From positions 1 to 30,874 of the IMG/VR virus record IMGVR_UViG_3300045988_027766: DNA of 30,874 nt. The stretch is one strand, 5' to 3'. Positions 1 to 30,874 of this stretch are shown here, in pieces. The position numbers were made by a program, and so were the translations under genes. The stretch's first letter is position 1. Each line of letters starts with the position of its first letter. The notes under the pieces were generated by a model. The model was given only the letters and a program-made list of their open reading frames with translations. It was not told where the DNA came from and searched no databases. The stretch is from a virus.

Positions 1-141
1 TCATGGACGCATTCAAGCATCGTCGACACAGCCGAACGGATCAGGCTCCGCGCCTCCCAATACCAGCCGATCGACATCCGCATCGACGACACCGGCGTAG
101 GCGGAGGCCTCACCGACCTCCTCAAATCATGGCAACTGCCA
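1..141. repeat. terminal overlap copy 1 (identical to 30734..30874); circular-closure overlap
   Basis: The same 141 nt (tcatggacgcattcaagcatcg...aatcatggcaactgcca) is read at both ends of the window. Confidence 0.9.
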
Positions 142-453
142 GCCACCGGCATCAACTACGCCGGAAAGCCGAAAGACCCCCAATACCCCAACATCGCCTC
201 AGAACTATGGTTCGACTTCGCCACCATGCTCCCCCACCTCAGCATCAACCCACAACTCACCGACCTAGCCAAGCTCACCACCGAACTCACCACCCGCAAA
301 TGGCAGATAACCAGCCGCAACCAACGGCAAATCGAAAGCAAACAAGACTACAAAAACAGCATGAACCTCGGCAGCCCTGACCTCGCCGACAGCACGCTCC
401 TCGCCTGCTACGAGCCACCGAAACTCCCCTCATGGGACGTCATGGTCTGCTAA
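1..453 (+). CDS. terL: terminase large subunit, C-terminal (nuclease) part; continuation of the ORF that starts at 29927 and crosses the circular junction
   Basis: Frame 1 is open from base 1 to TAA 451-453. Bases 1-141 repeat 30734-30874 in the same reading frame (..SWTHSSIVDTAERIRL..). The joined ORF 29927..30733 + 1..453 encodes 419 aa. Confidence 0.85.
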   Translation, partial: SWTHSSIVDTAERIRLRASQYQPIDIRIDDTGVGGGLTDLLKSWQLPATGINYAGKPKDPQYPNIASELWFDFATMLPHLSINPQLTDLAKLTTELTTRKWQITSRNQRQIESKQDYKNSMNLGSPDLADSTLLACYEPPKLPSWDVMVC

Positions 454-517
454 CCATCCAATAGCCTACAGCCGGTAGAATAGTGCGATAGAAAACACCC
501 CATCGAAACGAGGCAAA

Positions 518-2605
518 TTGACTATTCTCAGCAACCTACGCTCAGGCTTCACGAACGCCTTCGGCCGTGCCGACGCACCCCACGCGACCCCGACACCGGC
601 CGGAGGCAACACCTGGCAGACAATCGGCGGCAACAACATCCCAATGCACGACACATACGACAACATCTTCCCCTACGTAAACGCCATCGCACAACGCTTC
701 AGCACCGTCATCCCCTACGCCGTCAGCTCGGACGGCCGTCGCCTCGACCCCGCCCCAGCCGCATTAAGCGCCCTATACGCCCCGAACGACACATACAGCT
801 GCCTCGAATTCCTCAAACTCATCGCCTCCGGAATCCTCACCCAATCCCACATCGACATCCTCATCTGGACAACCGAAGGCCCCGGCGGCAACATCACCCC
901 CGACAACATCACCGGCTACACCCTCCTACCAGCGAACAGCCGCGTATACAACGACACCCACTCCGACTGGTACCACCGCGTAACCATGGACTTCGGCGAC
1001 GGAACACGCCAATACGAATTCACCCGCAACGAAACCATCTCACTAAGCTACAGCCGCCACCCCAACGACCCCACCCAAGGCATCAGCCCCGCCATGACCA
1101 TCAAAAAATGGGCCAACGTCGACGACATGATCGCCGACTACGAACGCGGCTTCTTCGGCAACAACGCCGTACCAGCCGGCATGCTCGGCATCGTCTCCGA
1201 AAACGCAGAAGACTTCCAACGCAACCGCGCACGCCTCGAAGAAACCTTCCGCGGAGCCGGCAACAACAACGGCATCGTCTACAACATGGTGCCCGTCGAC
1301 CCCCTAACCCACAAGCCCAGCCAAACCAGCAAACTCGTCTGGGTACCATTCCAAAACTCCAACGACAGCCTCGACCTCCAAACCGTCAGCGACGTCGTCA
1401 ACAACCGTCTAGCCAACGCGCTCGCCGTCCCCGACATCATCCGAGGCATCGACAACGGCCAAACCTACGCCAACGCCGAAATGGCCGAACGCGCATTCAT
1501 CGAAAACACCCTCAAACCCCTCTGCATGACAGTCTGGGACAAATGGCAGTTCGAACTCGACCGCATCACCGGCGGCCTCGGCTACGGCATCACATTCACC
1601 CTCAACCTCCCCGCACAAACCGAAGTCGAAAGAATACAGGCGGAAACCCAACAAATCCGCGTCAACAACCTCATCCAACTCATAAACATGGGAGCATCGG
1701 TCGAAACCGCAGCCGAAGCACTCAACCTCCCCGAAGCATACCGACGACTCGACCTACACCCCACCATCACCACACCACTCATCCCATCCGCAAGGAAAAC
1801 CACGAAAGCCGCGAAGACGATCGACAACAAACCATCCGAAACCCACCTCCTGACCGCCACACGAGCCTACGTCAACCGCGTCATCCGACTCACACGCCGC
1901 TCACAAAACAGTCTCACGGACGACCTCAAAACCATCGGCCAACAATGGATCAACGACGTGGAAGACGACCTCACCACCCACCTCACCGCCTACGCGAAGA
2001 AAACCGGCCTGAACCTCGCACAAGTCATCACCGCATGGGCCGAAATCCACCCCGACAGCCCAATCGCAGTCGAAGTGCAAGGCTACACGCAAACCGACTG
2101 GCAGAAACTCTACGATTGGGCCAACCTACCAACAAACGTGAAGACAGCATATATTGACCACCTGGAAACAATCGCCAACACGTCCTCCAAAACCATCACC
2201 ACGAAAACCATCGACATCCTCACCAAAGCCGACCAGGAACAATGGGACGCACGACGATTACAAGACGAGCTCGCACGCTTCGGCAACGAACACGCCGAAC
2301 TCATCGCCCGATGCGAAACCGTCCAAGCCCAACGACTCGGAAGCCTGTACAGTGCACGCAACATGAGCGAAACACTAGGCATCCGACTGAAGAAAGTATG
2401 GCGAACCACCGGAGACGGCAACACATGCGAATTCTGCAAACACATGGAAGGCACCACCATCAACCTTGACGGCTCCTACCTGGCGGAAAACGCGGCCGTC
2501 ACCATCGGAGACCACACCTACGTCAACAACTTCGAAACCATGGCCACACCGAACGGGCATCCGAACTGCCGATGCTACGAAGACTACGAAGTAATGGAGG
2601 ACTAG
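518..2605 (+). CDS. portal protein fused to a Mu F / SPP1 gp7-like minor head protein domain
   Basis: A 695-aa ORF directly follows terL, with a TTG start 5 nt after GAGG. The N-terminal ~430 aa are portal-sized. The C-terminus ..NTCEFCKHMEG..NGHPNCRCYEDYEV carries the CxxC...HPNCRC signature of the Phage_Mu_F family. Confidence 0.75.
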   Translation: MTILSNLRSGFTNAFGRADAPHATPTPAGGNTWQTIGGNNIPMHDTYDNIFPYVNAIAQRFSTVIPYAVSSDGRRLDPAPAALSALYAPNDTYSCLEFLKLIASGILTQSHIDILIWTTEGPGGNITPDNITGYTLLPANSRVYNDTHSDWYHRVTMDFGDGTRQYEFTRNETISLSYSRHPNDPTQGISPAMTIKKWANVDDMIADYERGFFGNNAVPAGMLGIVSENAEDFQRNRARLEETFRGAGNNNGIVYNMVPVDPLTHKPSQTSKLVWVPFQNSNDSLDLQTVSDVVNNRLANALAVPDIIRGIDNGQTYANAEMAERAFIENTLKPLCMTVWDKWQFELDRITGGLGYGITFTLNLPAQTEVERIQAETQQIRVNNLIQLINMGASVETAAEALNLPEAYRRLDLHPTITTPLIPSARKTTKAAKTIDNKPSETHLLTATRAYVNRVIRLTRRSQNSLTDDLKTIGQQWINDVEDDLTTHLTAYAKKTGLNLAQVITAWAEIHPDSPIAVEVQGYTQTDWQKLYDWANLPTNVKTAYIDHLETIANTSSKTITTKTIDILTKADQEQWDARRLQDELARFGNEHAELIARCETVQAQRLGSLYSARNMSETLGIRLKKVWRTTGDGNTCEFCKHMEGTTINLDGSYLAENAAVTIGDHTYVNNFETMATPNGHPNCRCYEDYEVMED

Positions 2606-2607
2606 CC

Positions 2608-2742
2608 ATGACATACGACATCCACTGCAGGAAATGCGGACGCTACCTCGGCTCATGCGCACGCGACGCCGACATCACGCTCAAATGCCCCAACTGCAAG
2701 AGCCTGGAACAATATCACATCGTGTTATTATGGACTCGATGA
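2608..2742 (+). CDS. Com-like zinc-ribbon protein (44 aa)
   Basis: ATG lies 3 nt after the portal stop, with GGAGGA 6 nt upstream. The product is MTYDIHCRKCGRYLGSCARDADITLKCPNCKSLEQYHIVLLWTR. The pattern I-H-C-R-K-C..L...I-x-L-K-C-P-x-C-K parallels phage Mu Com (IRCKNCNKLL..IEIRCPRCK). It is below the ORF-track size cutoff. Confidence 0.55.
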   Translation: MTYDIHCRKCGRYLGSCARDADITLKCPNCKSLEQYHIVLLWTR

Positions 2743-2801
2743 ACACTAAGCCCCCCAAGGACGTTCACAAATGACACACAACAACCCACCGAAAGGGTGA
2801 C

Positions 2802-4610
2802 ATGACCACTCGAAAGAGCTTCACCCACACCGGCGGTACCGTTGAAACCAAGGGCCGAACCATCACATTCCTAGCCAATTCCGGCAAAGTAATGTGCAAC
2901 GGACTCACAGTAGACCTCGACACGCTCAAAACCCCCCTCACAGACGGGACATTGAAACTCGTGTCGGATCTCAACGAATCCGACAGGCTCTCACTCCCCC
3001 TACTCATCGACCACACGCCCAGCGTAGAAGCCCAAGCCGGTACGATCACCCGCCTATGGATGACCGACATCGGACTCATGGCCGAAGCCAAACTCAGCGA
3101 AGTCGACAACGGGGAACGCATCCGCCAGCTAGCAGCCGACGGATGCCTCACCAACAGTTTCAGCATCACCGTCGAATTCACCAAACAGCCCGGCAAAGAC
3201 GGCATCATCCACAATGGCGAACTGGTAGAAATCAGCGTCGTCTACCGTGGAGCCGACCCCCGAGCCGCATTCACCTCAATCAACAACCGAAAGGAAAACA
3301 CCATGGACAACGAACTCATGACGAAGCTCGCTCGCACCGTCGCCCAGTTCAAACTCGACCCGGACGAAGCCGCAACCCTCACCTCCTCCGTCACCGGCAT
3401 CATGAACGATGCGGTATCCGACATCACGGAAGCAATCGACGATCAGACCGGCACTCAGACCACTCAGGAACAGGCCGCCCCGGAAGAGCCGACCCAGTCC
3501 GCCAACAAGCGTCCGCTCGTCATCATCAACAAGAGCAACCGGGCCGCCAAACAGTCCGGCGTCGCATCCTTCTCCCACGACCGCAAGACGTGGCTCGACT
3601 CCCCGGACGCCATGGCCTCCTTCGAACGCACCCTCATCAACAATGACAACAAGGGCGTCGAAGCATTCCACAAGGAATGGGCCGACACCGTGTCCCGCAA
3701 CATGGCCGACACCGCCTCATTCGGCGTAGGCAAGACCGACGTGGACAAGTTCATTCCGACCGAAGCCATCACCACCATCAGCGACGCGCTCAACACGAGA
3801 GGCTCCGGACTGTGGAACCTGTTCCGCAAGACCGGCATGGACAGGCTCACCATCGGCGGTAACATTCTCGGCCTGACCGACGCGACCCGCGCCCACGGCT
3901 ACCCGGTCACCTCCTATGGCACCAAGAAGAAGGAACAGGCCCCGTCCTTTGTTAAGCGCGAACTGACCGCAGACTACACGTACAAGTACATCACCCTCAA
4001 CAAGGGTGACATCCGTCGTACGCAGAAGCCGGGCGCACTGCTCCGCTACATCCTCTCCGAACTGCCGAACTACATCATCCAGACCATCGAACGTCAGGTC
4101 GTACTCGGCGGCTACGAAGACATGGCCCACTTCCGTTCCATCACCACCGACGCGGCCGACAAGGCCTCCGAATGGGCAGGTAACAAGTTCGCACTCACCC
4201 ACACCCTCACCGAGGACGCGCCGCTCATGGGCTTCGTCAAGGCATCCCACATGGTTCGCGCACAGGGCAACAAGGTACTCGTCTGCAATGCGGACACGGT
4301 AGCCGACCTGCTCATGAGCGCCAACGCGAACGGTAACACGTACATCGCTCTCGGCGGTGACGACACGCTCGCCCGTGCGCTCGGCGTCTCCCAGATCATC
4401 ACCCCGGAATGGTGGACTGCGGAAGACGACAAGACAGTCGCCGGCGTGGTCATGTCCGCATCCCACTACGCGCTCGTCGGCGACACGTCCGTCGAATCGT
4501 TCACGAACTTCGCGCTCCAGACAAATACCAATGAATACCTGCAGGAAATCTACGCAGGCGGCGGCCTGGACGCTGAGAAGTCCGCAGTGGTCATCAAGCC
4601 GAAGGCCTGA
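2802..4610 (+). CDS. prohead serine protease - linker/scaffold - HK97-fold major capsid protein fusion
   Basis: 602 aa. The N-terminal ~165 aa carry S78/U35-type protease motifs ([33 protein letters not shown]). An acidic/Q-rich linker follows. The C-terminal ~330 aa sit in the capsid position and are capsid-sized. RBS is GAAAGGGTG. Confidence 0.7.
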
Positions 4611-4612
4611 TC

Positions 4613-4945
4613 ATGAACGCTGAAATGTACTCACGAATCGGCGGCAAGGCGCTGCCAGCAGATAATCTGGACACGGTCAAGGTCATTAACTTCGTGGACA
4701 AGGAAGGGCAGCCAGTAGCCTTCGGCCAGGGCCCCGCAGGCCCCGCAGGCCCCGCAGGCCCCGTAGGCCCCGTAGGCCCCGCAGGCCCCGCAGGCCCCGC
4801 AGGCCCCGCAGGCCCCGCAGGCCCCGTAGGCCCCGCAGGCCCCGCAGGCACGATCACCAAAGCCGCCCACGTCGACCCAAACACCGGCTCAGTAGCGGAA
4901 ATAGTCTCCGCCCTAATAGCCGCAGGACTCATGGAAACCGCCTAA
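4613..4945 (+). CDS. collagen-like (Gly-Pro-Ala/Val)13 repeat protein; head fibre/decoration candidate
   Basis: 110 aa starting 2 nt after the capsid stop. The core is [40 protein letters not shown], flanked by non-repetitive N- and C-terminal segments. Confidence 0.7.
4730..4849. repeat. tandem 9-bp repeat ggccccgca/ggccccgta x13 (encodes the collagen-like tract)
   Basis: Copies are perfect at nucleotide level except for c/t at one position. This creates long shadow ORFs on both strands. Confidence 0.95.
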
Positions 4946-4966
4946 CAGCCAGCCAATAAACAACAC

Positions 4967-5000
4967 TAGGCCCTACCGATATAATTAACGGTAGGGCCTA
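4967..5000 (+). terminator. stem-loop after the capsid/collagen-like genes (attenuator or terminator)
   Basis: Perfect 12-bp stem taggccctaccg / cggtagggccta with a 10-nt AT loop. No clear T-run follows. Confidence 0.45.
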
Positions 5001-5020
5001 ACTGATTCTCCGGAGGAAAA

Positions 5021-5674
5021 ATGATCATCGACGACACCGTACGCACCCAAGTCGGCGACACCGCCTACACGACATGGAAAGACGCCGCACTCGCAGAACT
5101 AGCCAACCTGATCTGCATGAACGATTTCGAACAAACCCAAACCAACACGACAGGCACCGTCAGCCAAGACGGCACACACGTCCACCTACCATCATGGTAT
5201 TCGGAAATATGGTCAGCCAACACGACGACCAACACCCCCATCGACTACAAAGTCACCTACAACAAAAACGACGGACTCTCACCAGCCACCTCATACACGA
5301 ACACCATAACCCTCACCCACGCCTATCCAGCCGGCACGAAAATCACCGTCAGCGGCAGACACGGATTCAAAAAACTCCCCGCACCACTCGCCAGCATACT
5401 CACCGCCATCATCCAAGCCGACCAGACGACAGTCGACCGATCCGACCTCATCACCTCAAAGAAAATCGAAGACGTAAGCGTCTCCTACGCCACCGGCACG
5501 CAAACCACCCTCGAACATGCACTCACCCCATACCGCGCACTGATATCCTCCTGGAGCCTCTGCACAACCCGAACCGACACAGGAGGACTCCTCGACATGC
5601 CAACCCCCCACCACGACCTGCCCTGGTGGATCAACGAACAAGACCTAGGAGCAGCCAACCATGCCATCCTGTAA
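5021..5674 (+). CDS. head-tail connector/adaptor candidate (hypothetical structural protein)
   Basis: 217 aa with RBS GGAGGA. It is the first gene after the capsid module. No motif recognised. Confidence 0.35.
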   Translation: MIIDDTVRTQVGDTAYTTWKDAALAELANLICMNDFEQTQTNTTGTVSQDGTHVHLPSWYSEIWSANTTTNTPIDYKVTYNKNDGLSPATSYTNTITLTHAYPAGTKITVSGRHGFKKLPAPLASILTAIIQADQTTVDRSDLITSKKIEDVSVSYATGTQTTLEHALTPYRALISSWSLCTTRTDTGGLLDMPTPHHDLPWWINEQDLGAANHAIL

Positions 5675-6029
5675 CCCATTCAAACTCTTCCCCAACCAAA
5701 CCCAACAAGCCACCCTCTGGAAATACACGGCACCCGGCCTCGACAACATCAAACTCGCCGACCTAAACGTCATCATCAAACACTCCACACAAACCAACCA
5801 ACCAACCGAATACGCAAGCCGTATCACCAGCCGCCGCTTCCACATCCAACCCGACAACCTCCCCACAAACCTCCACGAAGACATGGAAGCATGGCCAGAC
5901 CTCATCCTCACCCTCACCAACGGCCGCACCTACCAAGTCGAACAAGCCAGCCGAGGAGACGACATGACCACCGGCACCACCCAATTCATCACCATCACAG
6001 CCCACCCCTACGGCAGGAACAGCCTATGA
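5661..6029 (+). CDS. head closure / head-tail joining candidate
   Basis: 122 aa. It overlaps the upstream gene by 14 nt and the downstream start by ATGA. The call rests on synteny only. Confidence 0.3.
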   Translation: MPSCNPFKLFPNQTQQATLWKYTAPGLDNIKLADLNVIIKHSTQTNQPTEYASRITSRRFHIQPDNLPTNLHEDMEAWPDLILTLTNGRTYQVEQASRGDDMTTGTTQFITITAHPYGRNSL

Positions 6030-6346
6030 GCTACCAACTCAAAACCACCGCCTCATGGACAAGAAAACTCTCCACCCAACAACTCAACAAAGGCGGCGCA
6101 CAAATGATGACCGACATCCTCCGAATGGCACGACAAAACGCGCCAGTCAAAACCGGCGCACTCCGCAACAGCGGCCGCTTCCAACAAACCAACACCCTCC
6201 ACTGGCGCATCACATTCGGCAACAGTCGCGTCCCCTACGCCCGAATCCGCGAACACACCAACCGCCTCCACCCCAACACCACCAGATACCTCGAACGCGC
6301 CGCCACCACAGCAAACAACAAAATCAAAACCTACTTCAACATCTAA
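6026..6346 (+). CDS. HK97 gp10-family tail completion / neck protein
   Basis: Internal ATG at 6026 of track ORF 5891..6346, in an ATGA overlap with the upstream stop. The product has the NAPVKTGALRNSGRF motif typical of the HK97 gp10 family. Confidence 0.6.
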   Translation: MSYQLKTTASWTRKLSTQQLNKGGAQMMTDILRMARQNAPVKTGALRNSGRFQQTNTLHWRITFGNSRVPYARIREHTNRLHPNTTRYLERAATTANNKIKTYFNI

Positions 6347-8124: not shown

Positions 8125-8127
8125 TCC

Positions 8128-24843: not shown

Positions 24844-24889
24844 TCCGGGACACCGAGGCGCGCAAGCGCCCTTACTTGTTTAGGGGAGT

Positions 24890-24926
24890 GTTTACAACTG
24901 CCGGTTACAACTGGGGTTACATCTGG
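24890..24926. repeat. three tandem ~12-bp repeats GTTACAWCTGG
   Basis: gtttacaactg cc ggttacaactgg ggttacatctgg. Confidence 0.8.
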
Positions 24927-24942
24927 TATAGGTTCGCGTTTC

Positions 24943-25005
24943 CACCCAAATTCATTTTAATCTTCACCCAAATTCATTTTAATCTTCACCCAAATTCATT
25001 TGGGT
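24943..25005. repeat. 22-bp tandem iteron-like repeats x2.7, last copy forming a palindrome
   Basis: cacccaaattcattttaatctt occurs twice, then cacccaaattcatttgggt (acccaaat/atttgggt arms). Confidence 0.9.
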
Positions 25006-25093
25006 TTATTCTCAAATGGATTTCAGTCCTACCTCAAAGGGGTGTGGGCGTCTGGGCCGCGGAATTCCAACGAAAAATGCCTATCCATGTCGA

Positions 25094-25126
25094 GCATCGA
25101 GACCAAGCCCGTATCCTCCTCGATGC
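25094..25126. repeat. 33-bp hairpin element, copy B
   Basis: Identical to 24679..24711. Confidence 0.9.
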
Positions 25127-25139
25127 TTCCGAGCTTCTC

Positions 25140-25231
25140 CCCATGGCTCCATGCCTCAGCCACCGAAGACATCGAGGCTAGGCTCCGATCGGTCAGGACT
25201 CCCGATCCCCTTGGGTTGGGATTGGTTCCCC
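25140..25231. repeat. 92-bp perfect direct repeat, copy B
   Basis: Identical to 24752..24843. Confidence 0.9.
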
Positions 25232-25275
25232 ACGGACACGCACGCGGCTCCCTGCGGGAGCCGTATATGTGTAGT

Positions 25276-25316
25276 GGAAGGGTTATCTAATAGAAGGGTT
25301 ATCTAGTAGAAGGGTC
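25276..25316. repeat. 16-bp tandem repeats AGAAGGGTTATCTAR x2.5
   Basis: ggaagggttatctaat agaagggttatctagt agaagggtc. Confidence 0.85.
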
Positions 25317-25321
25317 TTTGC

Positions 25322-25339
25322 TTGATACCCAGGTATCAA
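25322..25339. repeat. perfect palindrome TTGATACC-ca-GGTATCAA
   Basis: 8-bp arms with a 2-nt spacer. Further ATACC/ATAC half-sites follow. Confidence 0.85.
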
Positions 25340-25401
25340 AGGGGTCAATACCTAGATACTGAAGGTAATCGGTTTATTCCGCCTTTCATCGCGTCTGGGT
25401 T

Positions 25402-25460
25402 GACTGAACAAACAAGGCCCCGGCCAGTCCGGGAATCTCTTCCCAAACCCAACCGGGGCC
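25402..25460 (-). terminator. terminator of the 26589->25479 operon
   Basis: Minus strand reads ggccccgg - 29 nt - ccggggcc, followed by ttgtttgtt. Confidence 0.5.
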
Positions 25461-25478
25461 ATGCCTATTCCTAAGCCG

Positions 25479-25820
25479 TCACGTCTCCCTGACGCTCATG
25501 CCATACCGTCGTGCGAAGAGCTTGCTCTTAAGCCGGTACACGTCCGTTCTCATGCCCTTGACGTCCTCGACGACCTCCTTGCCCGTCTCCTTGTCCACGT
25601 AGACGAAATCCGCTACGTAATAGACAGGCCGGTAATGTCTGCCATCCACGTCGAAGGCTGGCACGAGCTCATAACGCACCTGTCGGCGCAGACCTTCGAT
25701 GGATCCGTCCTCCTCCATGCCCTTCAGGACGAGATACCTGTCGGCCTCCTTCCGCGAGTCGAAGGTGATGCCATCGACAGTCGTCTTATGGGCGTGGTAT
25801 TTGCTCCGTCCGTTCCACAT
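25479..25820 (-). CDS. DUF1064 (putative Holliday-junction resolvase/endonuclease) protein
   Basis: 113 aa; KTTVDGITFDSRKEADRYLVL...YYVADFVYVD..GKEVVEDVKGMRTDVYRLKSKLF. Confidence 0.7.
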   Translation of the reverse strand: MWNGRSKYHAHKTTVDGITFDSRKEADRYLVLKGMEEDGSIEGLRRQVRYELVPAFDVDGRHYRPVYYVADFVYVDKETGKEVVEDVKGMRTDVYRLKSKLFARRYGMSVRET

Positions 25821-25823
25821 GGC

Positions 25824-26234
25824 TTACCGTCCGGTGCTTCCGAAACCGTTGTCGCCACGCTCCGTCGCATTGAACGAGGAAACCTGCTCCAACGGCTCAT
25901 AGACCACCGGGATCACGACCAGCTGGGTGACCTTGTCACCCGCCTCGAACCCGTAGTCATCACCGCCATGGTTGTAAAGCTTGACCACGATACTTCCCGT
26001 GTATTCCTCGTCGATGAGCCCGGTGCTCGTGATGTCGTGCCTGACGTTGAGTCCGCTCTTGCTGACGAGCAGTCCGGCGCACCCGGTCGGCAATGCCACA
26101 TGCACGCCCGTATCAACTATCGCGCTCCCGTACGCCGGCACCGTCACGGCCTTCGGCGTATGCAAGTCCAGTCCGGCATCGGTGCTGTGGCCTCGTGACG
26201 GCATGTATGCTCCGTCATCCAACATGATTTCCAT
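25824..26234 (-). CDS. dut: dUTP diphosphatase
   Basis: 136 aa; DAGLDLH, AGLLVSKSG, GLIDEEYTGSIVVKLYN and the C-terminal ERGDNGFGSTGR motifs. Confidence 0.9.
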   Translation of the reverse strand: MEIMLDDGAYMPSRGHSTDAGLDLHTPKAVTVPAYGSAIVDTGVHVALPTGCAGLLVSKSGLNVRHDITSTGLIDEEYTGSIVVKLYNHGGDDYGFEAGDKVTQLVVIPVVYEPLEQVSSFNATERGDNGFGSTGR

Positions 26235-26310
26235 GGTGTTCTCCTTGTGCTATCATTAGTGACGTCGGTAAGTTTTTTGGTTTCCCTTTCCGACTGCCTT
26301 TCATTGGATA

Positions 26311-26356
26311 AAATAATACCCACCCAGTTGACTGCCCGGGTGGGTATTATTTTTAG
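26311..26356. terminator. bidirectional hairpin terminator between the small membrane-protein gene and dut
   Basis: ataatacccaccc / gggtgggtattat forms a 13-bp stem, flanked by aaa... on one side and ttttag on the other. Confidence 0.6.
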
Positions 26357-26364
26357 TGCTTGCG

Positions 26365-26589
26365 TCAGTGCTTGCTGTAGCCGCCGCTCAGCATCTTGAC
26401 GAGCCAGTAGAAGAAGTAGATGCCGCCAGTGAGTAAGCTGTACACGCACACCTTGATGAATCCTGGGGCCTTCTTCTTGCCGCTGTCGTCAGGCTGGGCC
26501 GGCGTCACGTTGTTGATGATGATCGGCTGCGGGGCGGCCTGCGGCTGGACGTTCTCGTTGTTGTTGCCGTTGTTGTTCTGTTCACACAT
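26365..26589 (-). CDS. small membrane protein (N/Q/P-rich N-terminus, C-terminal TM)
   Basis: 74 aa with SD AAAGGA; ..KVCVYSLLTGGIYFFYWLVKML... Confidence 0.55.
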   Translation of the reverse strand: MCEQNNNGNNNENVQPQAAPQPIIINNVTPAQPDDSGKKKAPGFIKVCVYSLLTGGIYFFYWLVKMLSGGYSKH

Positions 26590-26646
26590 TTTCGGTGTCC
26601 TTTCTGTTCGAGTGGATTATGTTATCCAACGTTGTGTGATATCTAA

Positions 26647-26677
26647 ACTATAGCATGATGATCATACGACACGCCGA
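26647..26677 (-). promoter_or_regulatory. leftward early promoter: TCGGCGTGTC box - 15 nt - TGcTATAGT
   Basis: Minus strand reads ttcggcgtgtcgtatgatcatcaTGcTATAGTttag, about 55 nt upstream of ATG 26589. Confidence 0.55.
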
Positions 26678-26705
26678 ACGGACGACAAGCCACCGCACAC
26701 GCCGA

Positions 26706-26734
26706 TTGCAATCCAATGGAAACGACGCTATACT
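26706..26734 (+). promoter_or_regulatory. sigma70-type promoter TTGCAA-17-TATACT
   Basis: The hexamers and 17-nt spacer were counted directly. A box variant gcacacgccga abuts the -35. Confidence 0.6.
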
Positions 26735-26740
26735 GATGCT

Positions 26741-26822
26741 TACCTTCATTGTGTACTGTCTTACCTCAGACAAGTGCTCAACCGGTTTCTCCACCCCTTT
26801 CCTCCGGTTGAGCATTTTTTTA
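26741..26822 (+). ncRNA. candidate ~80-nt small RNA (or terminated leader) in the divergent control region
   Basis: It runs from the predicted start after TATACT to terminator 26776-26822. It contains two CTTACCT repeats and a C-rich loop TTTCTCCACCCCTTTCCT with CUCC motifs; CCUCC spans the loop-stem junction. Confidence 0.4.
26776..26822 (+). terminator. rho-independent terminator
   Basis: gctcaaccgg / ccggttgagc forms a 10-bp stem with an 18-nt loop, followed by attttttta. Confidence 0.7.
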
Positions 26823-26878
26823 TGCCCAAAACTCCGACTCACATCATTATCACCGGTAACGCACCGACGTGAAATAGG

Positions 26879-26907
26879 TTGTAAGAATACCTGACGCGTT
26901 ATATAAT
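26879..26907 (+). promoter_or_regulatory. rightward early promoter TTGTAA-17-TATAAT (leaderless)
   Basis: The spacer was counted as 17 nt. The -10 ends 7 nt before ATG 26915, and there is no SD. Confidence 0.7.
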
Positions 26908-26914
26908 AAGATGT

Positions 26915-27094
26915 ATGAACGCTAAAACATATACCGCAACAGTCCCCGAATACGCTTCCCGCTGGAAGCTCAACATTCAGACCGTCCGCCGCTTCATCCG
27001 CGAAGGACGACTCCACGCAGTCAAGGTCGGCAGATGCTACTTCCTCGACCCGGACGTGATCCCCGACAAGGACAACACCGAAGCCGACAAATAA
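26915..27094 (+). CDS. excisionase-family / MerR-like HTH (HTH_17) DNA-binding protein
   Basis: 59 aa, MNAKTYTATVPEYASRWKLNIQTVRRFIREGRLHAVKVGRCYFLDPDVIPDKDNTEADK. Below the track cutoff; the antisense 158-aa track ORF is rejected. Confidence 0.6.
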   Translation: MNAKTYTATVPEYASRWKLNIQTVRRFIREGRLHAVKVGRCYFLDPDVIPDKDNTEADK

Positions 27095-27178
27095 AACACA
27101 ACCCACCACACGAGGGGCCGGCAAACCACCGGCCCCTCAACAAATAATCCATAACCGATCAAGGAAAAGGAAACCAAA

Positions 27179-27985
27179 ATGAATACCGAAATCCAAACAT
27201 TCAACTTCAACAGCGCCCCAGTGCGCACCCTGACCGACGAGAACGGTGACCCGTGGTTCGTCACCAAAGACGTATGCAACATCCTTGGACTTAACAACGT
27301 AGGCCAAGCGTTGGCACGCCTCGACGACGACGAGAAGAGTTCCATCACTTTTAAAGATGGAACCCCCGGAAACCCAAACAAGGCAATTGTTTCTGAATCC
27401 GGCCTCTACTCTCTCACCCTCGCATCACGCAAACCGGAAGCCCACGAGTTCAAACGCTGGGTAACCCACGAGGTGCTGCCTCAGATCCGCAGAACTGGCG
27501 GATACATTCCCACCACAGCCGTGGACGATGACATGACCATCCTCGCGAAGGCCGTGCTCGTCGCACAGAAGACCATCGAACTCAAGAACCAACAGCTCCA
27601 AGCCAAAGACACGCAAATCAAGGAGCTGGAACCAAAAGCGCAAGCCCTTGACGCTTTTACCGACGTGGAAGACCGACTTCTCGTCCGCGACGCCGCCAAG
27701 ATCCTCTCCAACTCCGGCACCATCATCACCGAAAAGCAGTTGCGCGAATGGATGGCAGCCAACGACTGGATCTACAAGCACAATGGTTCGTGGCAAGCCA
27801 CCGCAAGACACTGCACGGCCGGCCACCTCGTAATGGTCATGTCCACAAAGCACGGCACCAAGCCCAACGGCACGAAATTCGCTTTCCCACCCACCGTACG
27901 AATCACCCGCAAAGGCCTGGCCCTGCTACACGCACGACTCGGCGAAACCCGCCTGAACGAAACGCTCGAAACAACCACCCACTAA
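27179..27985 (+). CDS. antirepressor, Bro-N + KilAC (ANT) domains, paralog 1
   Basis: 268 aa; FNFNSAPVRTLTDENGDPWFVTKDVCNILGL...FKRWVTHEVLPQIRRTGGY, then the C-terminal part ..LLVRDAAKILS..EKQLREWM. Confidence 0.8.
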   Translation: MNTEIQTFNFNSAPVRTLTDENGDPWFVTKDVCNILGLNNVGQALARLDDDEKSSITFKDGTPGNPNKAIVSESGLYSLTLASRKPEAHEFKRWVTHEVLPQIRRTGGYIPTTAVDDDMTILAKAVLVAQKTIELKNQQLQAKDTQIKELEPKAQALDAFTDVEDRLLVRDAAKILSNSGTIITEKQLREWMAANDWIYKHNGSWQATARHCTAGHLVMVMSTKHGTKPNGTKFAFPPTVRITRKGLALLHARLGETRLNETLETTTH

Positions 27986-28003
27986 CCAAAAGAAAAGGAA
28001 ACA
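27869..28003. repeat. 135-bp near-identical direct repeat, copy 1 (vs 28717..28851)
   Basis: It covers the last 39 codons and stop of the gene plus the following SD. I found 4 mismatches, clustered in ctgaacgaa vs ctaaccaaa. Confidence 0.85.
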
Positions 28004-28005
28004 AA

Positions 28006-28833
28006 ATGAACACCGAAATCCAACCATTCGAATTCGAAAACAACCAGGTCAGGGCACTGGCCGATGGCGACGAAGTAATGTTCGTCGCATCCGACATCGC
28101 CAAGATTCTCGGATACCGCGACGCGGCCAACCTCACACGCACCCTTGACGACGACGAAAAAGGTACTCATGAAGTGAGTACCCCCCGTGGTGGTATGCAA
28201 ACCATGACTGTCCTCGCCGAGTCCGGCCTTTACCGCGCAATCCTTAATCGTGAAATCGCCTACGTGAAAGAGCCGGAATCACAGGCATTCGTGAAGCGCT
28301 TCCAGCGTTGGGTCACCCATGAGGTGCTCCCATCCATCCGCAAGCATGGTATCTACGCTACCGAAACCACCATCGACCAGATCCTAACCGACCCGGATTT
28401 CGGCATCAGACTGCTCACCAACCTGAAAGAAGAACGAGCCAAACGAATCGAAGCCGAAAACCAAGTCAAGGAGCTGGAACCAAAAGCGAAAGCATTGGAT
28501 GACTTCACCGACGTGCCCGACACCCTACTAGTCAGGGACGCCGCGAAACTGCTCTCGAACGCCGGCACGCCCATCGGCGAGAAGGAACTGCGAGAATGGC
28601 TCAGCCAGCACGATTGGATCTACCGGCATGCCGGCACATGGTGGGCAGCCTCGGAACGCGTGAAAGCCGGACACCTGGTCATGGTAGAGTCAAGATCGTA
28701 CGGACAACATAGGGACGGCACGAAATTCGCTTTCCCACCCACCGTACGAATCACCCGCAAAGGCCTGGCCCTGCTACACGCACGACTCGGCGAAACCCGC
28801 CTAACCAAAACGCTCGAAACAACCACCCACTAA
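28006..28833 (+). CDS. antirepressor, Bro-N + KilAC (ANT) domains, paralog 2
   Basis: ATG 28006 follows AAAAGGAAAC (the track ORF starts at 27748). The 275-aa product has FEFENNQVRALADGDEVMFVASDIAKILGY...FQRWVTHEVLPSIRKHGIY. Confidence 0.8.
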   Translation: MNTEIQPFEFENNQVRALADGDEVMFVASDIAKILGYRDAANLTRTLDDDEKGTHEVSTPRGGMQTMTVLAESGLYRAILNREIAYVKEPESQAFVKRFQRWVTHEVLPSIRKHGIYATETTIDQILTDPDFGIRLLTNLKEERAKRIEAENQVKELEPKAKALDDFTDVPDTLLVRDAAKLLSNAGTPIGEKELREWLSQHDWIYRHAGTWWAASERVKAGHLVMVESRSYGQHRDGTKFAFPPTVRITRKGLALLHARLGETRLTKTLETTTH

Positions 28834-28851
28834 CCAAAAGAAAAGGAAACA
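28717..28851. repeat. 135-bp near-identical direct repeat, copy 2
   Basis: See 27869..28003. Confidence 0.85.
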
Positions 28852-28854
28852 CCA

Positions 28855-29310
28855 ATGAACGACCCACACATCATCCTCCCCTCAGCCCGACTCGTAGCTG
28901 ACCCGGAACAGAAGCAAACCAAGAACGGCACCCCATACCTCCTCATCCGCGTAGCCGCAAACGGCAGCCACAAAGACAAGCAGACCGGACAATGGGTCGA
29001 CCACGACACGATGTTCGCCACGATCTTCGAATACGACCAGCGTCTCGCCGCCACCTACATCCAGAACCTCCACAAAGGCACTCCAGTACGCGTCGAAGGC
29101 GACCTGAAATGGCAGGCCGGCACCGACCGCAACGGCCAACCCCGCACCGACTTCACCATCAACTACGCGACCATCAACCTAATCCTCAAGAAAGCCAAAA
29201 CCCAACAGTCCACACCACAGCAGCCGACACCGCAACAGCAGGCCGCCAACTGGGGCAACACCAACCAGCCCGACCCGTACGCACAGTTCCCCGCCGTCGA
29301 CGAATGGTGA
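28855..29310 (+). CDS. ssb: single-stranded DNA-binding protein
   Basis: 151 aa. OB-fold-like N-terminus (..ARLVADPEQKQTKNGTPYLLIRVAAN...LHKGTPVRVEGDLKWQ..), a Q/P-rich linker and a short acidic-aromatic tail ..FPAVDEW. Confidence 0.7.
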   Translation: MNDPHIILPSARLVADPEQKQTKNGTPYLLIRVAANGSHKDKQTGQWVDHDTMFATIFEYDQRLAATYIQNLHKGTPVRVEGDLKWQAGTDRNGQPRTDFTINYATINLILKKAKTQQSTPQQPTPQQQAANWGNTNQPDPYAQFPAVDEW

Positions 29311-29321
29311 AAGGAAACACG

Positions 29322-29459
29322 ATGAACCCCAAGAAACATCCAATCAGCTACAAGATAGGCACCATCGCCGCCTACACCCTCATCACAGCCGTGACAATCC
29401 TCGGCGTAACAGGCACAATAGCCATCATGAAACTCCTGATCGCCTTCATCCTCAGCTAA
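29322..29459 (+). CDS. small single-TM membrane protein (45 aa)
   Basis: MNPKKHPISYKIGTIAAYTLITAVTILGVTGTIAIMKLLIAFILS with SD AAAGGAAAC. It corresponds to the C-terminal end of track ORF 28992..29459. Confidence 0.45.
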   Translation: MNPKKHPISYKIGTIAAYTLITAVTILGVTGTIAIMKLLIAFILS

Positions 29460-29464
29460 ACCAC

Positions 29465-29490
29465 AGCCCCACAAACAACGTGGGGCTTTT
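29465..29490 (+). terminator. rho-independent terminator ending the rightward early operon
   Basis: agccccac / gtggggct forms an 8-bp stem with a 7-nt loop, followed by tttt. Confidence 0.65.
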
Positions 29491-29501
29491 CCATATTTGG
29501 A

Positions 29502-29507
29502 TATAAT
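29502..29507 (+). promoter_or_regulatory. TATAAT -10 element of the candidate late promoter (leaderless terS)
   Basis: TATAAT ends 7 nt before ATG 29515, the same geometry as 26902-26907/26915. There is no recognisable -35. Confidence 0.45.
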
Positions 29508-29514
29508 CAGCAAT

Positions 29515-29907
29515 ATGACAGAAGCAGTAGTACGAGACGCACACGGCCGCATCGTCAGCGGAGCATGCAACCCGACCGGCAAAGGCGGATTCCAAGACCG
29601 ACCACAAGACCGAGGCTCATGGACTAAAGACACCAGCCCCACCCGGTGGATCCGAGAATTCAGCAAGCTCACCGCCGAAGAATTCAACGAAAAAACAAAG
29701 GATCCGAACCTTACCATGGTTCAACGCATCGCCATCAAACACATCCTCAACGCATCCAAGGATTCAAAGGTCGCGGCCGACTACATCGACCGACTCGACG
29801 GCAAGGCCCGTCAGTCCACCGACATATCAGTCACCGGCTACGAGCCTCCCCACATCACGCTCGAAGTCTTCGACGACAACCCTGGAAACGACAAAGACAG
29901 CCAGTAA
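29515..29907 (+). CDS. terS: terminase small subunit candidate
   Basis: 130 aa from ATG 29515 (the track gives a TTG at 29497). It lies immediately upstream of terL. It has an NPTGKGGF motif and a basic/helical centre. Confidence 0.55.
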   Translation: MTEAVVRDAHGRIVSGACNPTGKGGFQDRPQDRGSWTKDTSPTRWIREFSKLTAEEFNEKTKDPNLTMVQRIAIKHILNASKDSKVAADYIDRLDGKARQSTDISVTGYEPPHITLEVFDDNPGNDKDSQ

Positions 29908-29926
29908 AAACACCTAGACTGGACAC

Positions 29927-30874
29927 ATGCAGATAGCAAGACCATACCGTGATTTATGGTGGTGGCTCCATACGGAGACGCCACCATATCGTTATTACTG
30001 CTATTCCGGCGGTCGAGCTTCCGGCAAAAGCACCGCCGTCGCACAAAGCCTCATACTCCGTGCCGCCAGCCAGCCAATCACCGTCCTCTGCGCGCGAGAA
30101 TACCAAAATTCCATTTCCGACTCCGTGCACAAGCTTCTTGTCGGCACCATCCGTAAATTCGGATTGCAAGGCTTTGAAATCACCCGCGACGGCATCAGCC
30201 ACATCAACGGCAGCACTTTCATCTTCCGCGGCCTGCACAACAATTTCGAAAGCATCAAAAGCATCGAAGGCATCGACGTCTGCTGGGTCGAGGAAGCACA
30301 GACAGTCGGCAAGGAAAGCCTGACCACGCTCATCCCGACCATCCGCAAAGCCAATTCCACACTGATCTTCACATGGAACCCCCGTACGAGCCACGACACC
30401 GTCTGGAACTATTTCATCTCCTCGGACTCAAAGGAACGTCACAAGCAGACCTGTCACTGGCATACAACATTCAAGGACGTGGAAAGACTCCTCAGCCCGG
30501 ACGTACTCGCCATGATCGAAGCCGACCGGAACTCCGCAGACTTCGGCCACATCTGGCTAGGACTCCCCTACTCGGACACCGACAATCAGCTCATCAGCGA
30601 CAGCATGCTCAACGAAGCCATCCACCGCACCCCAGAGGACGGCCCGGTCACCTTCGGCATCGACGTGGCCCGATACGGCAACGACCGCACCGCACTCACC
30701 ATCAAAAAAGGCAACCATATCGAAACACTCGAATCATGGACGCATTCAAGCATCGTCGACACAGCCGAACGGATCAGGCTCCGCGCCTCCCAATACCAGC
30801 CGATCGACATCCGCATCGACGACACCGGCGTAGGCGGAGGCCTCACCGACCTCCTCAAATCATGGCAACTGCCA
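29927..30874 (+). CDS. terL: terminase large subunit, N-terminal (ATPase) part; runs off the window end and continues at base 1
   Basis: Frame 2 from ATG 29927 reads MQIARPYRDLWWWLHTETPPYRYYCYSGGRASGKST (Walker A). It continues with ..IDVCWVEEAQ (Walker B) and ..FGIDVARYGNDRTAL (nuclease). There is no stop before the end, so it is absent from the ORF track. Confidence 0.85.
   Translation, partial: MQIARPYRDLWWWLHTETPPYRYYCYSGGRASGKSTAVAQSLILRAASQPITVLCAREYQNSISDSVHKLLVGTIRKFGLQGFEITRDGISHINGSTFIFRGLHNNFESIKSIEGIDVCWVEEAQTVGKESLTTLIPTIRKANSTLIFTWNPRTSHDTVWNYFISSDSKERHKQTCHWHTTFKDVERLLSPDVLAMIEADRNSADFGHIWLGLPYSDTDNQLISDSMLNEAIHRTPEDGPVTFGIDVARYGNDRTALTIKKGNHIETLESWTHSSIVDTAERIRLRASQYQPIDIRIDDTGVGGGLTDLLKSWQLP
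30734..30874. repeat. terminal overlap copy 2 (identical to 1..141)
   Basis: See 1..141. Confidence 0.9.

Follow-up and report, generated by a model that had tools for sequence, protein, structure and literature searches.

Bacterial chromosomes and plasmids are partitioned by nucleotide skew into two opposite arms, each about half of the circle, whose bias is independent of gene orientation at synonymous sites and in non-coding DNA, with one pole at an iteron origin beside initiator and loader genes and the other at its antipode. By rule, G and T are enriched on the leading strand, and a case described as 'unusual' has a whole-strand GC skew of about -0.33 and no AT skew (PMC7143001). The heavy and light strands of animal mitochondrial DNA provide a second paradigm, an amino/keto (A+C versus G+T) skew that is strongest at four-fold degenerate sites, with an A+C-rich sense strand for most genes and a C-to-T and A-to-G transition signature on the G+T-rich strand. 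At the level of the replication module, phage lambda has tandem iterons and an initiator with two domains, the N-terminal one of which covaries with those iterons, together with a helicase-loader gene immediately downstream of the initiator gene. Opposite the lambda origin lie the tail genes of the late operon, as is the case opposite the proposed origin of the phage described here.

This phage belongs to the genus Namikivirus (Umezonoviridae), which corresponds to VC_18 of Nishijima et al. 2022 (PMC9448778; ICTV 2024, PMC11532311). Its DnaC-like protein is 89% identical to a protein labelled Namikivirus ikeda by NCBI, and it resembles the genus in genome size, human-gut source, and predicted actinobacterial (Bifidobacterium) host, as well as in lying outside the clusters that PMC9448778 reports as lysogenic; there is no difference in kind. 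It is common in the human gut, with Bifidobacterium as its predicted host, and no tRNA genes were found in its genome. GC skew is plotted in a supplementary figure of PMC9448778, the text of which neither mentions nor interprets it. The window, that is, the whole stretch of 30,874 nt that was analyzed, carries an exact 141-bp overlap at its ends, bases 30734-30874 repeating 1-141. This is an assembler artefact (contig names k141_...), and the 30,733-bp circle proposed in the preliminary description follows from it. The skew of this circle is extraordinarily strong, is organized around the probable replication origin rather than the genes, and, with that origin, is opposite in sign to the bacterial rule. 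Its compositional domains, with skew given as (G+T-A-C)/N on the + strand, are as follows.

26827..30874, no strand: arm A, first part; + strand strongly A+C-rich; a change-point fit puts the right edge of the adjoining unskewed zone at 26,827
1..7300, no strand: arm A, second part; + strand A+C-rich; four-fold skew between -0.5 and -1.0, with its extreme at 5.7-7.3 kb
26.9 kb via the junction to 7.3 kb, + strand: four-fold sites of arm A; A 403, C 1113, G 210, T 83; skew -0.68
6700..11300, no strand: ramp across which the skew changes sign, inside the + strand late operon (piecewise fit and four-fold bins)
10529..15906, + strand: late genes with a G+T-rich coding strand, opposite to the rest of their own operon (PHROGs, Pfam, four-fold sites)
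11300..23107, no strand: arm B; + strand strongly G+T-rich (window skews, four-fold sites)
11.3 to 23.1 kb, + strand: four-fold sites of arm B; A 41, C 240, G 880, T 561; skew +0.67
17283-18188, - strand: early YqaJ-like exonuclease gene, A+C-rich coding strand (four-fold sites)
18307-18900, - strand: early Erf annealing protein gene, A+C-rich coding strand (four-fold sites)
23107..26827, no strand: zone without net skew, with sharp edges (change-point fit, fine profile, four-fold sites)

In 1-kb windows, the + strand reaches a GC skew of -0.45 and an AT skew of +0.46 at 5-7 kb, and +0.35 and -0.58, respectively, at 17-21 kb. Its four-fold sites are 84% A+C in arm A and 84% G+T in arm B (Fisher exact p ~0 for the pooled counts), and the 243 such sites at 5.7-7.3 kb include 3 G and 1 T. 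The four 60-base counts quoted in the preliminary description are all exact, and the two opposite domains it saw as roughly equal prove to be arms of about 48% and 52% of the circle. Their limits needed revision: the G+T-rich domain ends near 23.1 kb instead of 24.3 kb, and the A+C-rich domain does not begin at 24.4 kb, as 23.1-26.8 kb is unskewed and the dUTPase gene sampled there is neutral.

Arm A begins sharply, at a promoter-like site upstream of a 59-aa gene, and its first part holds only + strand genes (two Bro-N/ANT proteins, SSB, two small ORFs, and the large terminase); its second part spans terminase, portal, protease/capsid, and head-tail genes and the first 480 nt of a 274-aa putative major tail gene. 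Arm B spans the + strand tail-tip and lysis genes (to 15906) and then the - strand early genes (16087-23080). Within arm B the four-fold skew is +0.59 in + strand genes and +0.74 in - strand genes, and because the two agree, the sign is set by the DNA strand and not the coding strand. The coding-strand component is small, about 0.08 at four-fold sites, and the most extreme skew of arm B lies in a - strand gene (14197-14544) embedded among the + strand late genes. Non-coding DNA behaves likewise (-0.44, +0.29, and -0.03 in arm A, arm B, and the central zone, respectively). The late genes that PHROGs identify (portal, protease/capsid, tape measure, Dit, a tail protein, and the amidase lysin) share the + strand, and the flip does fall within this co-oriented operon. 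The genes at 10529..15906 encode Dit, a tail protein, 231-aa and 301-aa tail proteins, a 49-aa putative holin, the amidase lysin, and a 99-aa product. The codon preferences reported earlier are confirmed: the portal gene uses GAC 44 times and GAT once, and AAC 53 times and AAT never, whereas gene 13240-14145 has 2 GAC to 16 GAT and 2 TAC to 12 TAT. Against sister-clade orthologues, head genes show 189 gains and 78 losses of T/P/N/H/Q/K, and tail-tip genes 116 gains and 37 losses of V/G/F/W/C/L. Proteins are thus driven in opposite ways inside one operon, with replacements that track the DNA strand. Synonymous sites, non-coding DNA, and amino-acid replacements therefore agree, and the strand dependence is stronger than first stated.

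These observations bear directly on selection for messenger or codon properties, such as a preference for A/C-rich messages free of structure, or decoding capacity divided between two pools. At synonymous sites the majority of messages (head and early) are indeed A/C-rich, but non-coding DNA is biased in the same way, the composition of the tail-tip and lysis messages is the opposite, the A/T bias is symmetric with respect to coding orientation, the phage is devoid of tRNA genes, and the head genes avoid host-like G-ending codons. Such selection is already contradicted by the non-coding and opposite-sign data, and we regard it as very improbable.

The switch near the tape measure gene is present as first described, in the form of a ramp about 4 kb long. 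It extends from about 7.3 to 11.3 kb at four-fold sites and from 6,694 to 10,994 in a piecewise fit to all bases, and contains the 3' part of the tail gene, two genes in chaperone position, the tape measure gene (8458-10509), and Dit; in the present genome there is also an abrupt step at 7.3 kb inside the tail gene. Estimates of its center (8.6-9.3 kb) lie 0.3-1.0 kb from the iteron antipode at 9.6 kb. Among genomes the ramp is 2-4.5 kb long and is shifted by about 1 kb between subclades of identical gene order, which fits a zone where forks meet rather than a fixed site. Ramp position and computed antipode are uncorrelated across 14 genomes, an under-powered comparison given ranges of about 0.9 and 0.7 kb and shared history. 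No repeats, non-coding DNA, or replication genes were found within 7-11 kb.

The preliminary description also considered an import of the 8.5-16 kb module (tail tip and lysis) from a relative with the opposite strand bias. Such genes are the most exchangeable part of these phages, the sister clade lacks counterparts of the lysin and holin, and the present genome shows the step at 7.3 kb. However, all 24 close relatives examined (24/24), with nucleotide divergence up to 15-25%, share the same pattern and arrangement, indicating a bias maintained in place. Furthermore, the change across the tape measure gene is gradual and its position floats by about 1 kb, the G+T bias runs unbroken into the - strand early genes, and tail genes are always co-oriented with head genes, leaving no plausible donor with the opposite arm and bias. 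An imported module is accordingly disfavored and hardly probable.

The other pole of the circle comprises the unskewed zone and the adjacent replication genes.

21314..22156, - strand: DnaC/IstB-like AAA+ helicase loader gene, present in 13/13 complete close relatives
22232..23080, - strand: replication initiator gene (PHROG replication initiation / O-like / DnaD-like)
24921..25030, no strand: iterons, two exact and two degenerate copies of the 22-bp unit CACCCAAATTCATTTTAATCTT at the center of the zone
24678-24711 and 25093-25126, no strand: 34-bp perfect direct repeat flanking the iterons
24752-24843 and 25140-25231, no strand: 92-bp perfect direct repeat flanking the iterons

The zone is 3.7 kb wide, and its mean skew is -0.02 when all bases are counted and +0.08 at four-fold sites. 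It contains five neutral genes on the - strand (99 aa, 82 aa, DUF1064, dUTPase, and 74 aa), along with some 1.7 kb in which no gene is convincing; across 14 complete genomes, its width ranges from 2.3 to 3.7 kb. Tandem repeats of 22-23 bp lie at 0.41-0.58 of the zone width in 13 of these 14. Genomes with different iteron types differ correspondingly in the N-terminal 120 aa of the initiator, whereas its C-terminal part shows no such correspondence; this is the classic signature of origin-initiator specificity. Because of this covariation, the iterons are most likely the origin of replication, and the suggestion that the repeats are not the origin is disfavored, as is also indicated by their central position. 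The module parallels that of lambda, although the iterons are situated in non-coding DNA, some 1.9 kb away from the initiator gene rather than inside it, there is no sequence similarity to O or P beyond the family level, and nothing comparable to the skew is seen in lambda. In another assembly of the same phage, a break falls exactly at 24752, the first base of the 92-bp repeat, and another assembly has an iteron array that differs by one copy.

The left edge of the zone coincides with the initiator start codon (26 bp away in the present phage; at most 50 bp in 8 of 14 genomes), and the right edge lies at a strong promoter-like TTGTAA-17-TATAAT (26879-26907) preceded by a hairpin and T-run. 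Both sharp edges are intergenic, as would be expected if the dominant direction of transcription set the skew and the non-template strand became A+C-rich. A rightward unit would start at about 26.9 kb, and a leftward early unit at about 23.1 kb, running antisense across the lysis and tail-tip genes and fading in the tape measure gene. The embedded - strand gene at 14197-14544 implies that some leftward transcription must cross the lysis cassette, and the small coding-strand component is in the same spirit. Yet the five leftward genes of the zone are neutral, and the 74-aa gene/dUTPase/DUF1064 set among them has in front of it a 39-nt element that shares 72% identity with one preceding the initiator gene, which is strongly skewed. 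Across some 7 kb of essential late genes, antisense transcription would have to exceed sense transcription, the central iterons and antipodal ramp would lack a reason, and the sign is opposite to that of known transcription-associated asymmetry, where the non-template strand accumulates T and G. We consider this account improbable.

The reading we favor, with a probability of about 0.6, is an asymmetry of bidirectional replication with inverted polarity, the leading strand being A+C-rich. The skew would be the cumulative trace of strand-asymmetric mutation (or fixation) pressure coupled to the direction of replication. Replication of the circle would begin at the iterons, at about 24.95-25.03 kb, through the action of the neighboring initiator and DnaC-like loader, and proceed both ways, with a rightward fork traversing 26.8 kb via the junction to about 9 kb and a leftward fork traversing 23.1 kb down to about 9 kb. 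The forks would meet in the tape-measure region opposite the origin; because no fixed stop site would be involved, a ramp instead of a step results, with the sign changing in the middle of the late operon. The roughly 1.9 kb left unskewed on either side of the iterons may reflect leading strands that start on opposite sides and overlap, such that both new strands are continuous, or initiation that alternates between the two zone edges. A replication-type asymmetry on a bidirectional circle, as first proposed, is supported by every test available, and of the three readings offered in the preliminary description, inverted polarity is the one that remains; we infer from these patterns the start of the forks at the iterons, their two-way movement, and the mutational nature of the pressure.

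Under inverted polarity, the strand with the nascent leading-strand sequence would be A+C-rich and its complement G+T-rich, contrary to the bacterial rule. The leading strand is made G+T-rich both by deamination of the lagging-strand template while it is exposed and by the replication-error spectra of repair-deficient bacteria. The sign thus contradicts both accepted sources of replication skew and requires a mechanism outside them. The lagging strand may undergo more G·T-type misincorporation or be corrected less well, or the leading-strand template may stay single-stranded for long when helicase and polymerase become uncoupled. A point origin also predicts a step at the iterons and not a 3.7-kb unskewed zone, so that extra assumptions are needed, and the coincidence of both edges with gene or promoter boundaries is also predicted by transcription. 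Bacterial skew likewise differs in its point switch and in magnitude, as the four-fold skew here averages ±0.68 and reaches -1.0. Mitochondrial skew is comparable or smaller in magnitude and has a single sign round the circle, as opposed to two arms and an unskewed zone; it is associated with a transcript-primed D-loop rather than an iteron origin with a DnaC-like loader, and any distance gradient in the phage is weak and confined to one arm.

Recent C-to-T and A-to-G changes are about 2.5 times commoner per site on the G+T-rich strand (hand-pooled, small counts), and a residual memory of both is visible in the tail-tip genes. Together with the G+T enrichment, this excess is the known signature of single-strand exposure, and calls for no new chemistry if polarity is standard. 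Leading-strand or strand-displacement synthesis would then proceed outward from the tape-measure region (~8-10 kb), the displaced strands (+ to the right, - to the left) becoming G+T-rich by deamination as in mitochondrial DNA, and 23.1-26.8 kb would be a terminus or fork trap entered from either side. A two-barrier trap would yield a flat unskewed zone with sharp edges, the step at 7.3 kb would suit a start site, and the right-arm skew, which is -0.5 near 27 kb and -1.0 by 6.9-7.3 kb, grows as expected if exposure is longest near the start. Nevertheless, the 7-11 kb region lacks the repeats, non-coding DNA, and replication genes of an origin, which should switch sharply at a fixed place and not over a 2-4.5-kb ramp that moves by about 1 kb among subclades; the initiator-covarying iterons sit at the opposite pole, and nearly all genes would be transcribed head-on to replication. 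Standard polarity is therefore unlikely. In arm A, recent C-to-T changes number 49 and T-to-C changes 6; because the commonest base is thus losing ground, there may be a contribution from biased fixation or recombination in addition to mutation.

The distribution of the skew follows the replication module. The sister clade (terminase ~80% identical) is near neutral at four-fold sites; its sampled, weakly skewed loci carry an HTH_36 protein in the corresponding early-gene position, and the DnaC-like loader was not found in them. Two other phages with lysins 73-78% identical to the present one have ordinary skew. The skew is not a host-wide effect, as other likely Bifidobacterium phages are without it, and is restricted to the lineage with the present replication module.

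It is clear that the base asymmetry of this phage belongs to the DNA strand rather than to the genes it carries. All four 60-base composition counts in the preliminary description were exact on recount, and in 1-kb windows the + strand shows a GC skew of −0.45 and an AT skew of +0.46 at 5–7 kb, and values of +0.35 and −0.58, respectively, at 17–21 kb. Four-fold sites take opposite signs in an A+C-rich and a G+T-rich arm:

Base counts at four-fold sites, + strand
26.9 kb to 7.3 kb: A 403, C 1113, G 210, T 83; (G+T−A−C)/N = −0.68
11.3 to 23.1 kb: A 41, C 240, G 880, T 561; (G+T−A−C)/N = +0.67

The effect is unusually large: free sites on one strand are 84% (locally about 100%) A+C, and the 243 four-fold sites between 5.7 and 7.3 kb include 3 G and 1 T. 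Computed gene by gene, the four-fold skew does not track coding orientation (within 11.3–23.1 kb, +0.59 for + genes and +0.74 for − genes), and a strand effect of about 0.67 compares with a coding-strand effect of merely about 0.08. Noncoding DNA carries the same signs (A+C-rich arm −0.44, G+T-rich arm +0.29, intervening central zone −0.03). Synonymous sites and noncoding DNA thus agree with the original claim that the skew follows the DNA strand, and the codon examples offered with it hold as well (portal gene, GAC 44 and GAT 1; gene 13240–14145, GAC 2 and GAT 16). The pressure is directional and acts on DNA; it is not codon selection. Selection on messages or codons as the source of the skew is contradicted by the noncoding data and by the opposite signs, and is very improbable. 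A bisulfite-like or other sequencing artefact is ruled out by the joint A>T and C>G excess, the intact reading frames, and the same pattern in independent assemblies of several studies.

The first 141 bases of the window are identical to its last 141, giving a circle of 30,733 bp; the overlap is attributed to the assembler because other assemblies of the same phage bear MEGAHIT-style k141 contig names. The gene map is based on PHROGs and Pfam, and tRNA and Rfam scans of the window gave no match.

Gene map of the phage
26.9 kb via the junction to 15.9 kb, + strand: rightward genes, namely two Bro-N/ANT proteins, SSB, large terminase, portal, protease/capsid fusion, tail genes, tape measure, Dit, tail-tip genes, and amidase lysin
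8458–10509, + strand: tape measure (PHROGs/Pfam)
23.1 down to 16.1 kb, − strand: leftward early genes, namely initiator, DnaC/IstB-like loader, DUF3310, Erf, YqaJ-like exonuclease, and small genes
23.2–26.6 kb, − strand: five central-zone genes, DUF1064 and dUTPase among them

Seven + strand late genes (10.5–15.9 kb) have a sign opposite to that of the rest of their own operon, and each of the five − strand central-zone genes is neutral at four-fold sites. Neither the seven nor the five behave as transcription-coupled asymmetry would have it, with a sign set by whichever strand of a gene is coding or transcribed. A conserved 115-aa gene on the opposite strand (14197–14544, −) separates the last tail gene from the holin/lysin cassette and shows the strongest skew of the G+T-rich arm (+ strand four-fold sites A 0, C 1, G 38, T 13).

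A 300-bp profile and a change-point fit resolve the genome into three regions. The two opposite-sign domains of the preliminary description stand as arms, but the zone between them had been overlooked. The edges of that zone, which spans 3.7 kb and has no net skew, lie at 23,107, where the G+T-rich arm stops 26 bp from the start codon of the initiator, and at 26,827, where a promoter-like site ahead of the first rightward gene marks the beginning of the A+C-rich arm. The boundary formerly placed at 24.4 kb is due to a local A+C-rich patch (24.35–24.8 kb) within this unskewed zone. At the other pole, where a switch had been proposed at 7.4–8.5 kb, the sign changes along a gradual ramp: the four-fold skew is −1.0 until 7.3 kb, about −0.3 at 7.3–8.5 kb, about +0.1 at 8.5–10.1 kb, about +0.35 at 10.1–11.3 kb, and +0.55 to +0.7 thereafter. 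Estimates of the ramp center are 8.6 kb (cumulative minimum), 8.8–9.2 kb (piecewise fit), and 9.3 kb (four-fold sites), and the antipode of the 22-bp tandem repeats in the central zone, the iterons, is at 9.6 kb. Measured from the iterons to the ramp center, the arms span about 14.8 and 16.0 kb, or about 48% and 52% of the circle, so that skew plots do yield two opposite domains with switches about half a genome apart. The broad ramp is displaced by about 1 kb in a subclade of identical gene order; this breadth and displacement are expected of a zone where forks meet, and not of a fixed origin or a recombination junction. Among 14 complete genomes, which share history and vary over ranges below 1 kb, the ramp center does not correlate with the computed antipode. 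At position 7300, inside a 274-aa tail gene (6820–7644), the four-fold skew of the window genome and its subgroup falls abruptly from −1.00 to about −0.35, and in another subgroup strong skew runs on to the tape-measure start; the step could be left over from recombination or reflect a fork-meeting zone that has moved.

Relatives were sought by scanning IMG/VR with the tape-measure and terminase proteins, which returned many contigs of about 30 kb. The three-part skew pattern is common to 24 close relatives (terminase 83–95% identical; 13 reconstructed completely). Import of the 8.5–16 kb tail-tip module, one of three readings first considered, fails on this conservation over 24 genomes and on the gradual transition, and is highly unlikely. 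A sister clade (terminase about 80% identical) has the same G+C content and gene order and is near neutral at four-fold sites. Relative to its orthologues, head and early proteins show gains of T/P/N/H/Q/K (189 vs. 78 and 91 vs. 44), and tail-tip proteins gains of V/G/F/W/C/L (116 vs. 37); the protein composition of two halves of one operon is thus driven opposite ways. The DnaC-like loader, DUF1064, dUTPase, and several small early genes occur in the skewed clade alone, and the sister-clade loci sampled have an HTH_36 protein in the corresponding early-gene position instead. Two neighboring paralogous Bro-N/ANT (anti-repressor-like) genes (27179–28833), in a phage where no integrase or repressor was detected, are missing in the sister clade and in 2–3 of 13 close relatives. 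Sister-clade genomes that are otherwise neutral have a single A+C-rich stretch, about 1 kb long and about 3 kb upstream of terminase (e.g., 5469–5924 in L099 and 9469–9882 in L096). In L099 the skewed gene there is an ORF of 151 aa, as long as the window's SSB, and has a four-fold skew of −0.52; this suggests segment exchange between the skewed and unskewed clades. A third lineage, L108 (IMGVR_UViG_3300045988_069983; terminase 62% identical, G+C 0.60), has strongly A+C-rich head genes in the part examined (2338–10587; four-fold skew −0.5 to −0.67). In this lineage, the Erf gene is found immediately before SSB and terminase.

The DnaC-like protein is 89% identical to a protein that NCBI labels Namikivirus ikeda, which makes Namikivirus the probable genus, and the 120 matches listed for it all fall in the same clade. 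A megablast of 12 kb of the window matched no deposited phage genome. The family to which Namikivirus belongs, Umezonoviridae (taxonomy entry; ICTV 2024, PMC11532311), corresponds to VC_18 of Nishijima et al. (2022), which is abundant in the human gut, has a predicted actinobacterial host, and is absent from the clusters reported as lysogenic (PMC9448778). GC skew is drawn in an Extended Data figure of the preprint of that study and discussed neither there nor in the published text (PMC9448778), and our literature search found no paper describing this asymmetry.

Within the unskewed zone, about 1.7 kb (23784–25478) are devoid of any convincing gene or Rfam match and hold the iterons, a 22-bp unit in about four copies (24921–25030), 1.9 kb from the initiator start and flanked by perfect direct repeats of 34 and 92 bp. 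The iterons mark the center of the 3.7-kb zone rather than a point switch, and in 13 of 14 complete genomes a 22–23-bp tandem repeat falls at 0.41–0.58 of the zone's width, itself 2.3–3.7 kb. The repeat sequence varies among genomes, and its types match those of the N-terminal 120 residues of the initiator. C-terminal types sort otherwise: contigs 049000 and 073021 have the same iterons and N-terminal type and different C-terminal types. One subgroup pair with N-terminal domains 82–88% identical has different iterons. Judged from sequence, such covariation is what an initiator and its putative binding sites would be expected to show and, because the repeat types match the adjoining N-terminal types, the iterons are most likely the replication origin. 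The earlier alternative that the repeat region is not the origin accordingly loses ground to this match and to the central position of the repeats. The initiator (22232–23080 and homologues in 13 relatives) is a two-domain mosaic, with about five N-terminal and two C-terminal types freely combined among otherwise close genomes; the window's version occurs in only 3 of the 13. The 1.7-kb stretch also has a strong + strand hairpin with a T7 run (24344–24375), as well as the local A+C-rich patch. Of the other assemblies of the phage, one is 988 bp longer and has its break exactly at 24752, and a second lacks one 22-bp unit. Two leftward gene sets, the initiator operon (skewed) and the 74-aa/dUTPase/DUF1064 set (neutral), are each immediately preceded by a copy of a 39-nt direct repeat (23210–23248 and 26639–26677; copies 72% identical), which on the − strand can be read as promoter-like (TATACT/TATAGT).

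We consider replication-associated asymmetry, bidirectional from the iterons and with an A+C-rich leading strand, to be the best supported reading, with a probability of roughly 60%. Replication would proceed both ways from the iterons and the forks would meet in the tape-measure region, a layout like that of lambda, where the origin antipode also lies within tail genes. The replication interpretation originally offered is favored by the 48%/52% arms and by skew that follows the DNA strand, although fork direction, like the cause of the reversed sign, is something we infer; of its three readings, inverted polarity is the survivor. Under standard polarity, synthesis would start in the tape-measure region and 23.1–26.8 kb would be a fork trap; this reading would keep the chemistry simple and fits the rise of the skew toward 7.3 kb. 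Yet its pole offers no origin-like sequence and only a floating, diffuse switch, and the initiator-matched iterons sit at the opposite one, which makes it improbable. A skew set by the dominant direction of transcription is about equally improbable. It accounts for the sharp edges at gene starts, but it leaves the central position of the iterons unaccounted for, the leftward central genes are neutral (one set behind a promoter-like element 72% identical to that of the initiator), and dominant antisense transcription would be required across 7 kb of late genes. Promoter and terminator scans of 7–17 kb gave counts equal to the shuffled expectation, and hence no verdict on leftward transcripts stopping at 16 kb.

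Replication-associated strand asymmetry is a known kind of feature, of which this phage is an extreme variant with reversed sign and an unskewed zone centered on the putative origin. Deamination of an exposed lagging-strand template predicts a G+T-rich leading strand, as do the replication-error spectra of repair-deficient bacteria. Bacterial asymmetry shares with the phage two opposite domains, switches about half a genome apart, and strand-bound skew at synonymous and noncoding sites, but the bacterial leading strand is G+T-rich (PMC7143001), whereas that of the phage, given an origin at the iterons, would be A+C-rich on both arms. Mitochondrial-type asymmetry shares the amino/keto skew and the excess of C-to-T and A-to-G on the G+T-rich strand, but has a single sign graded by single-stranded time, in contrast to two opposite arms and a weak rise toward 7.3 kb on one of them. 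Theta origins of the iteron type share tandem repeats of about 20 bp near the initiator, and iterons that covary with its N-terminal domain.

In close pairs, recent C-to-T and A-to-G substitutions are about 2.5 times commoner per site on the G+T-rich strand (pooled counts 19/480 vs. 61/4032 and 6/102 vs. 27/1154, with rare-base counts as small as 6–11 events), so that the changes are of the usual kind but on the unexpected strand. Tail-tip genes still bear a trace of past A-to-G and C-to-T changes when set against the sister clade; in that four-fold comparison the head genes are saturated and the tail-tip genes alone informative. Whole-tree parsimony at four-fold sites, which is saturated (>1 change per site) and biased from common to rare bases, was left out for direction.

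Several causes of the reversed sign may be envisaged: more G·T misincorporation or weaker correction in discontinuous synthesis; uncoupling of helicase and polymerase that would leave the leading-strand template single-stranded for long; or a nucleotide-pool effect via the DUF3310 protein (19764–20132, −), labeled "nucleotide kinase" in PHROGs, which could tie nucleotide pools to a G/T-directed bias. As a lead, we take the DUF3310 family to include T7 gp1.7, a dGMP/dTMP kinase. The unskewed zone could arise if two leading strands start on opposite sides of the origin and overlap, leaving no discontinuous synthesis there, or if initiation alternates between the zone's two edges. Tentatively, and with more doubt than confidence, we propose that the Namikivirus replisome, built by its own initiator and DnaC-like loader module, has an asymmetry reversed and far stronger than that of any cellular chromosome. 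C-to-T and A-to-G changes would be so frequent on the discontinuously copied strand (or on a leading-strand template bared by an uncoupled helicase) that the leading strand ends up 85–100% A+C at free sites, and the unskewed zone of about ±1.9 kb would mark the start of lagging-strand synthesis on each side. Such a replisome would provide a natural system separating template deamination from polymerase error, with leading-strand start sites mappable from sequence alone.

Strand skew is a routine guide to the origins and termini of bacterial, plasmid, and phage genomes, under the rule that the leading strand is G+T-rich. Applied to this abundant human-gut phage genus, the rule would mislead, putting the origin within the tape-measure gene and making the iterons the terminus; origin calls from skew can therefore be inverted for metagenome phages. 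Host prediction from codon usage or k-mers, gene calling, and phylogenetics will all be distorted for these phages. The system could also help settle whether replication skew stems from damage to exposed templates or from asymmetric copying errors.

Among cellular proteins, the lysin is closest to amidases of Bifidobacterium and Schaalia. It has counterparts 73–78% identical in two other phages; both are unskewed, which rules out host-driven bias as the sole cause. The skew is lineage-specific, occurring with a particular replication module and neither in the sister clade nor in phages with very similar lysins, which makes its cause experimentally tractable. The capsid protein, searched against reference bacterial genomes, revealed no prophage copy and so indicates no host. 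The closest isolated relatives in a capsid-protein search are the Bifidobacterium phages BlindUri1 and BlindBasel1 (capsid 43% identical), and BlindUri1, when profiled, has ordinary skew. Many contigs of about 15.3–15.7 kb carry related Amidase_2 + CW_7 lysins (protein hits P0040–P0073) and may represent a population of small Bifidobacterium-associated elements.
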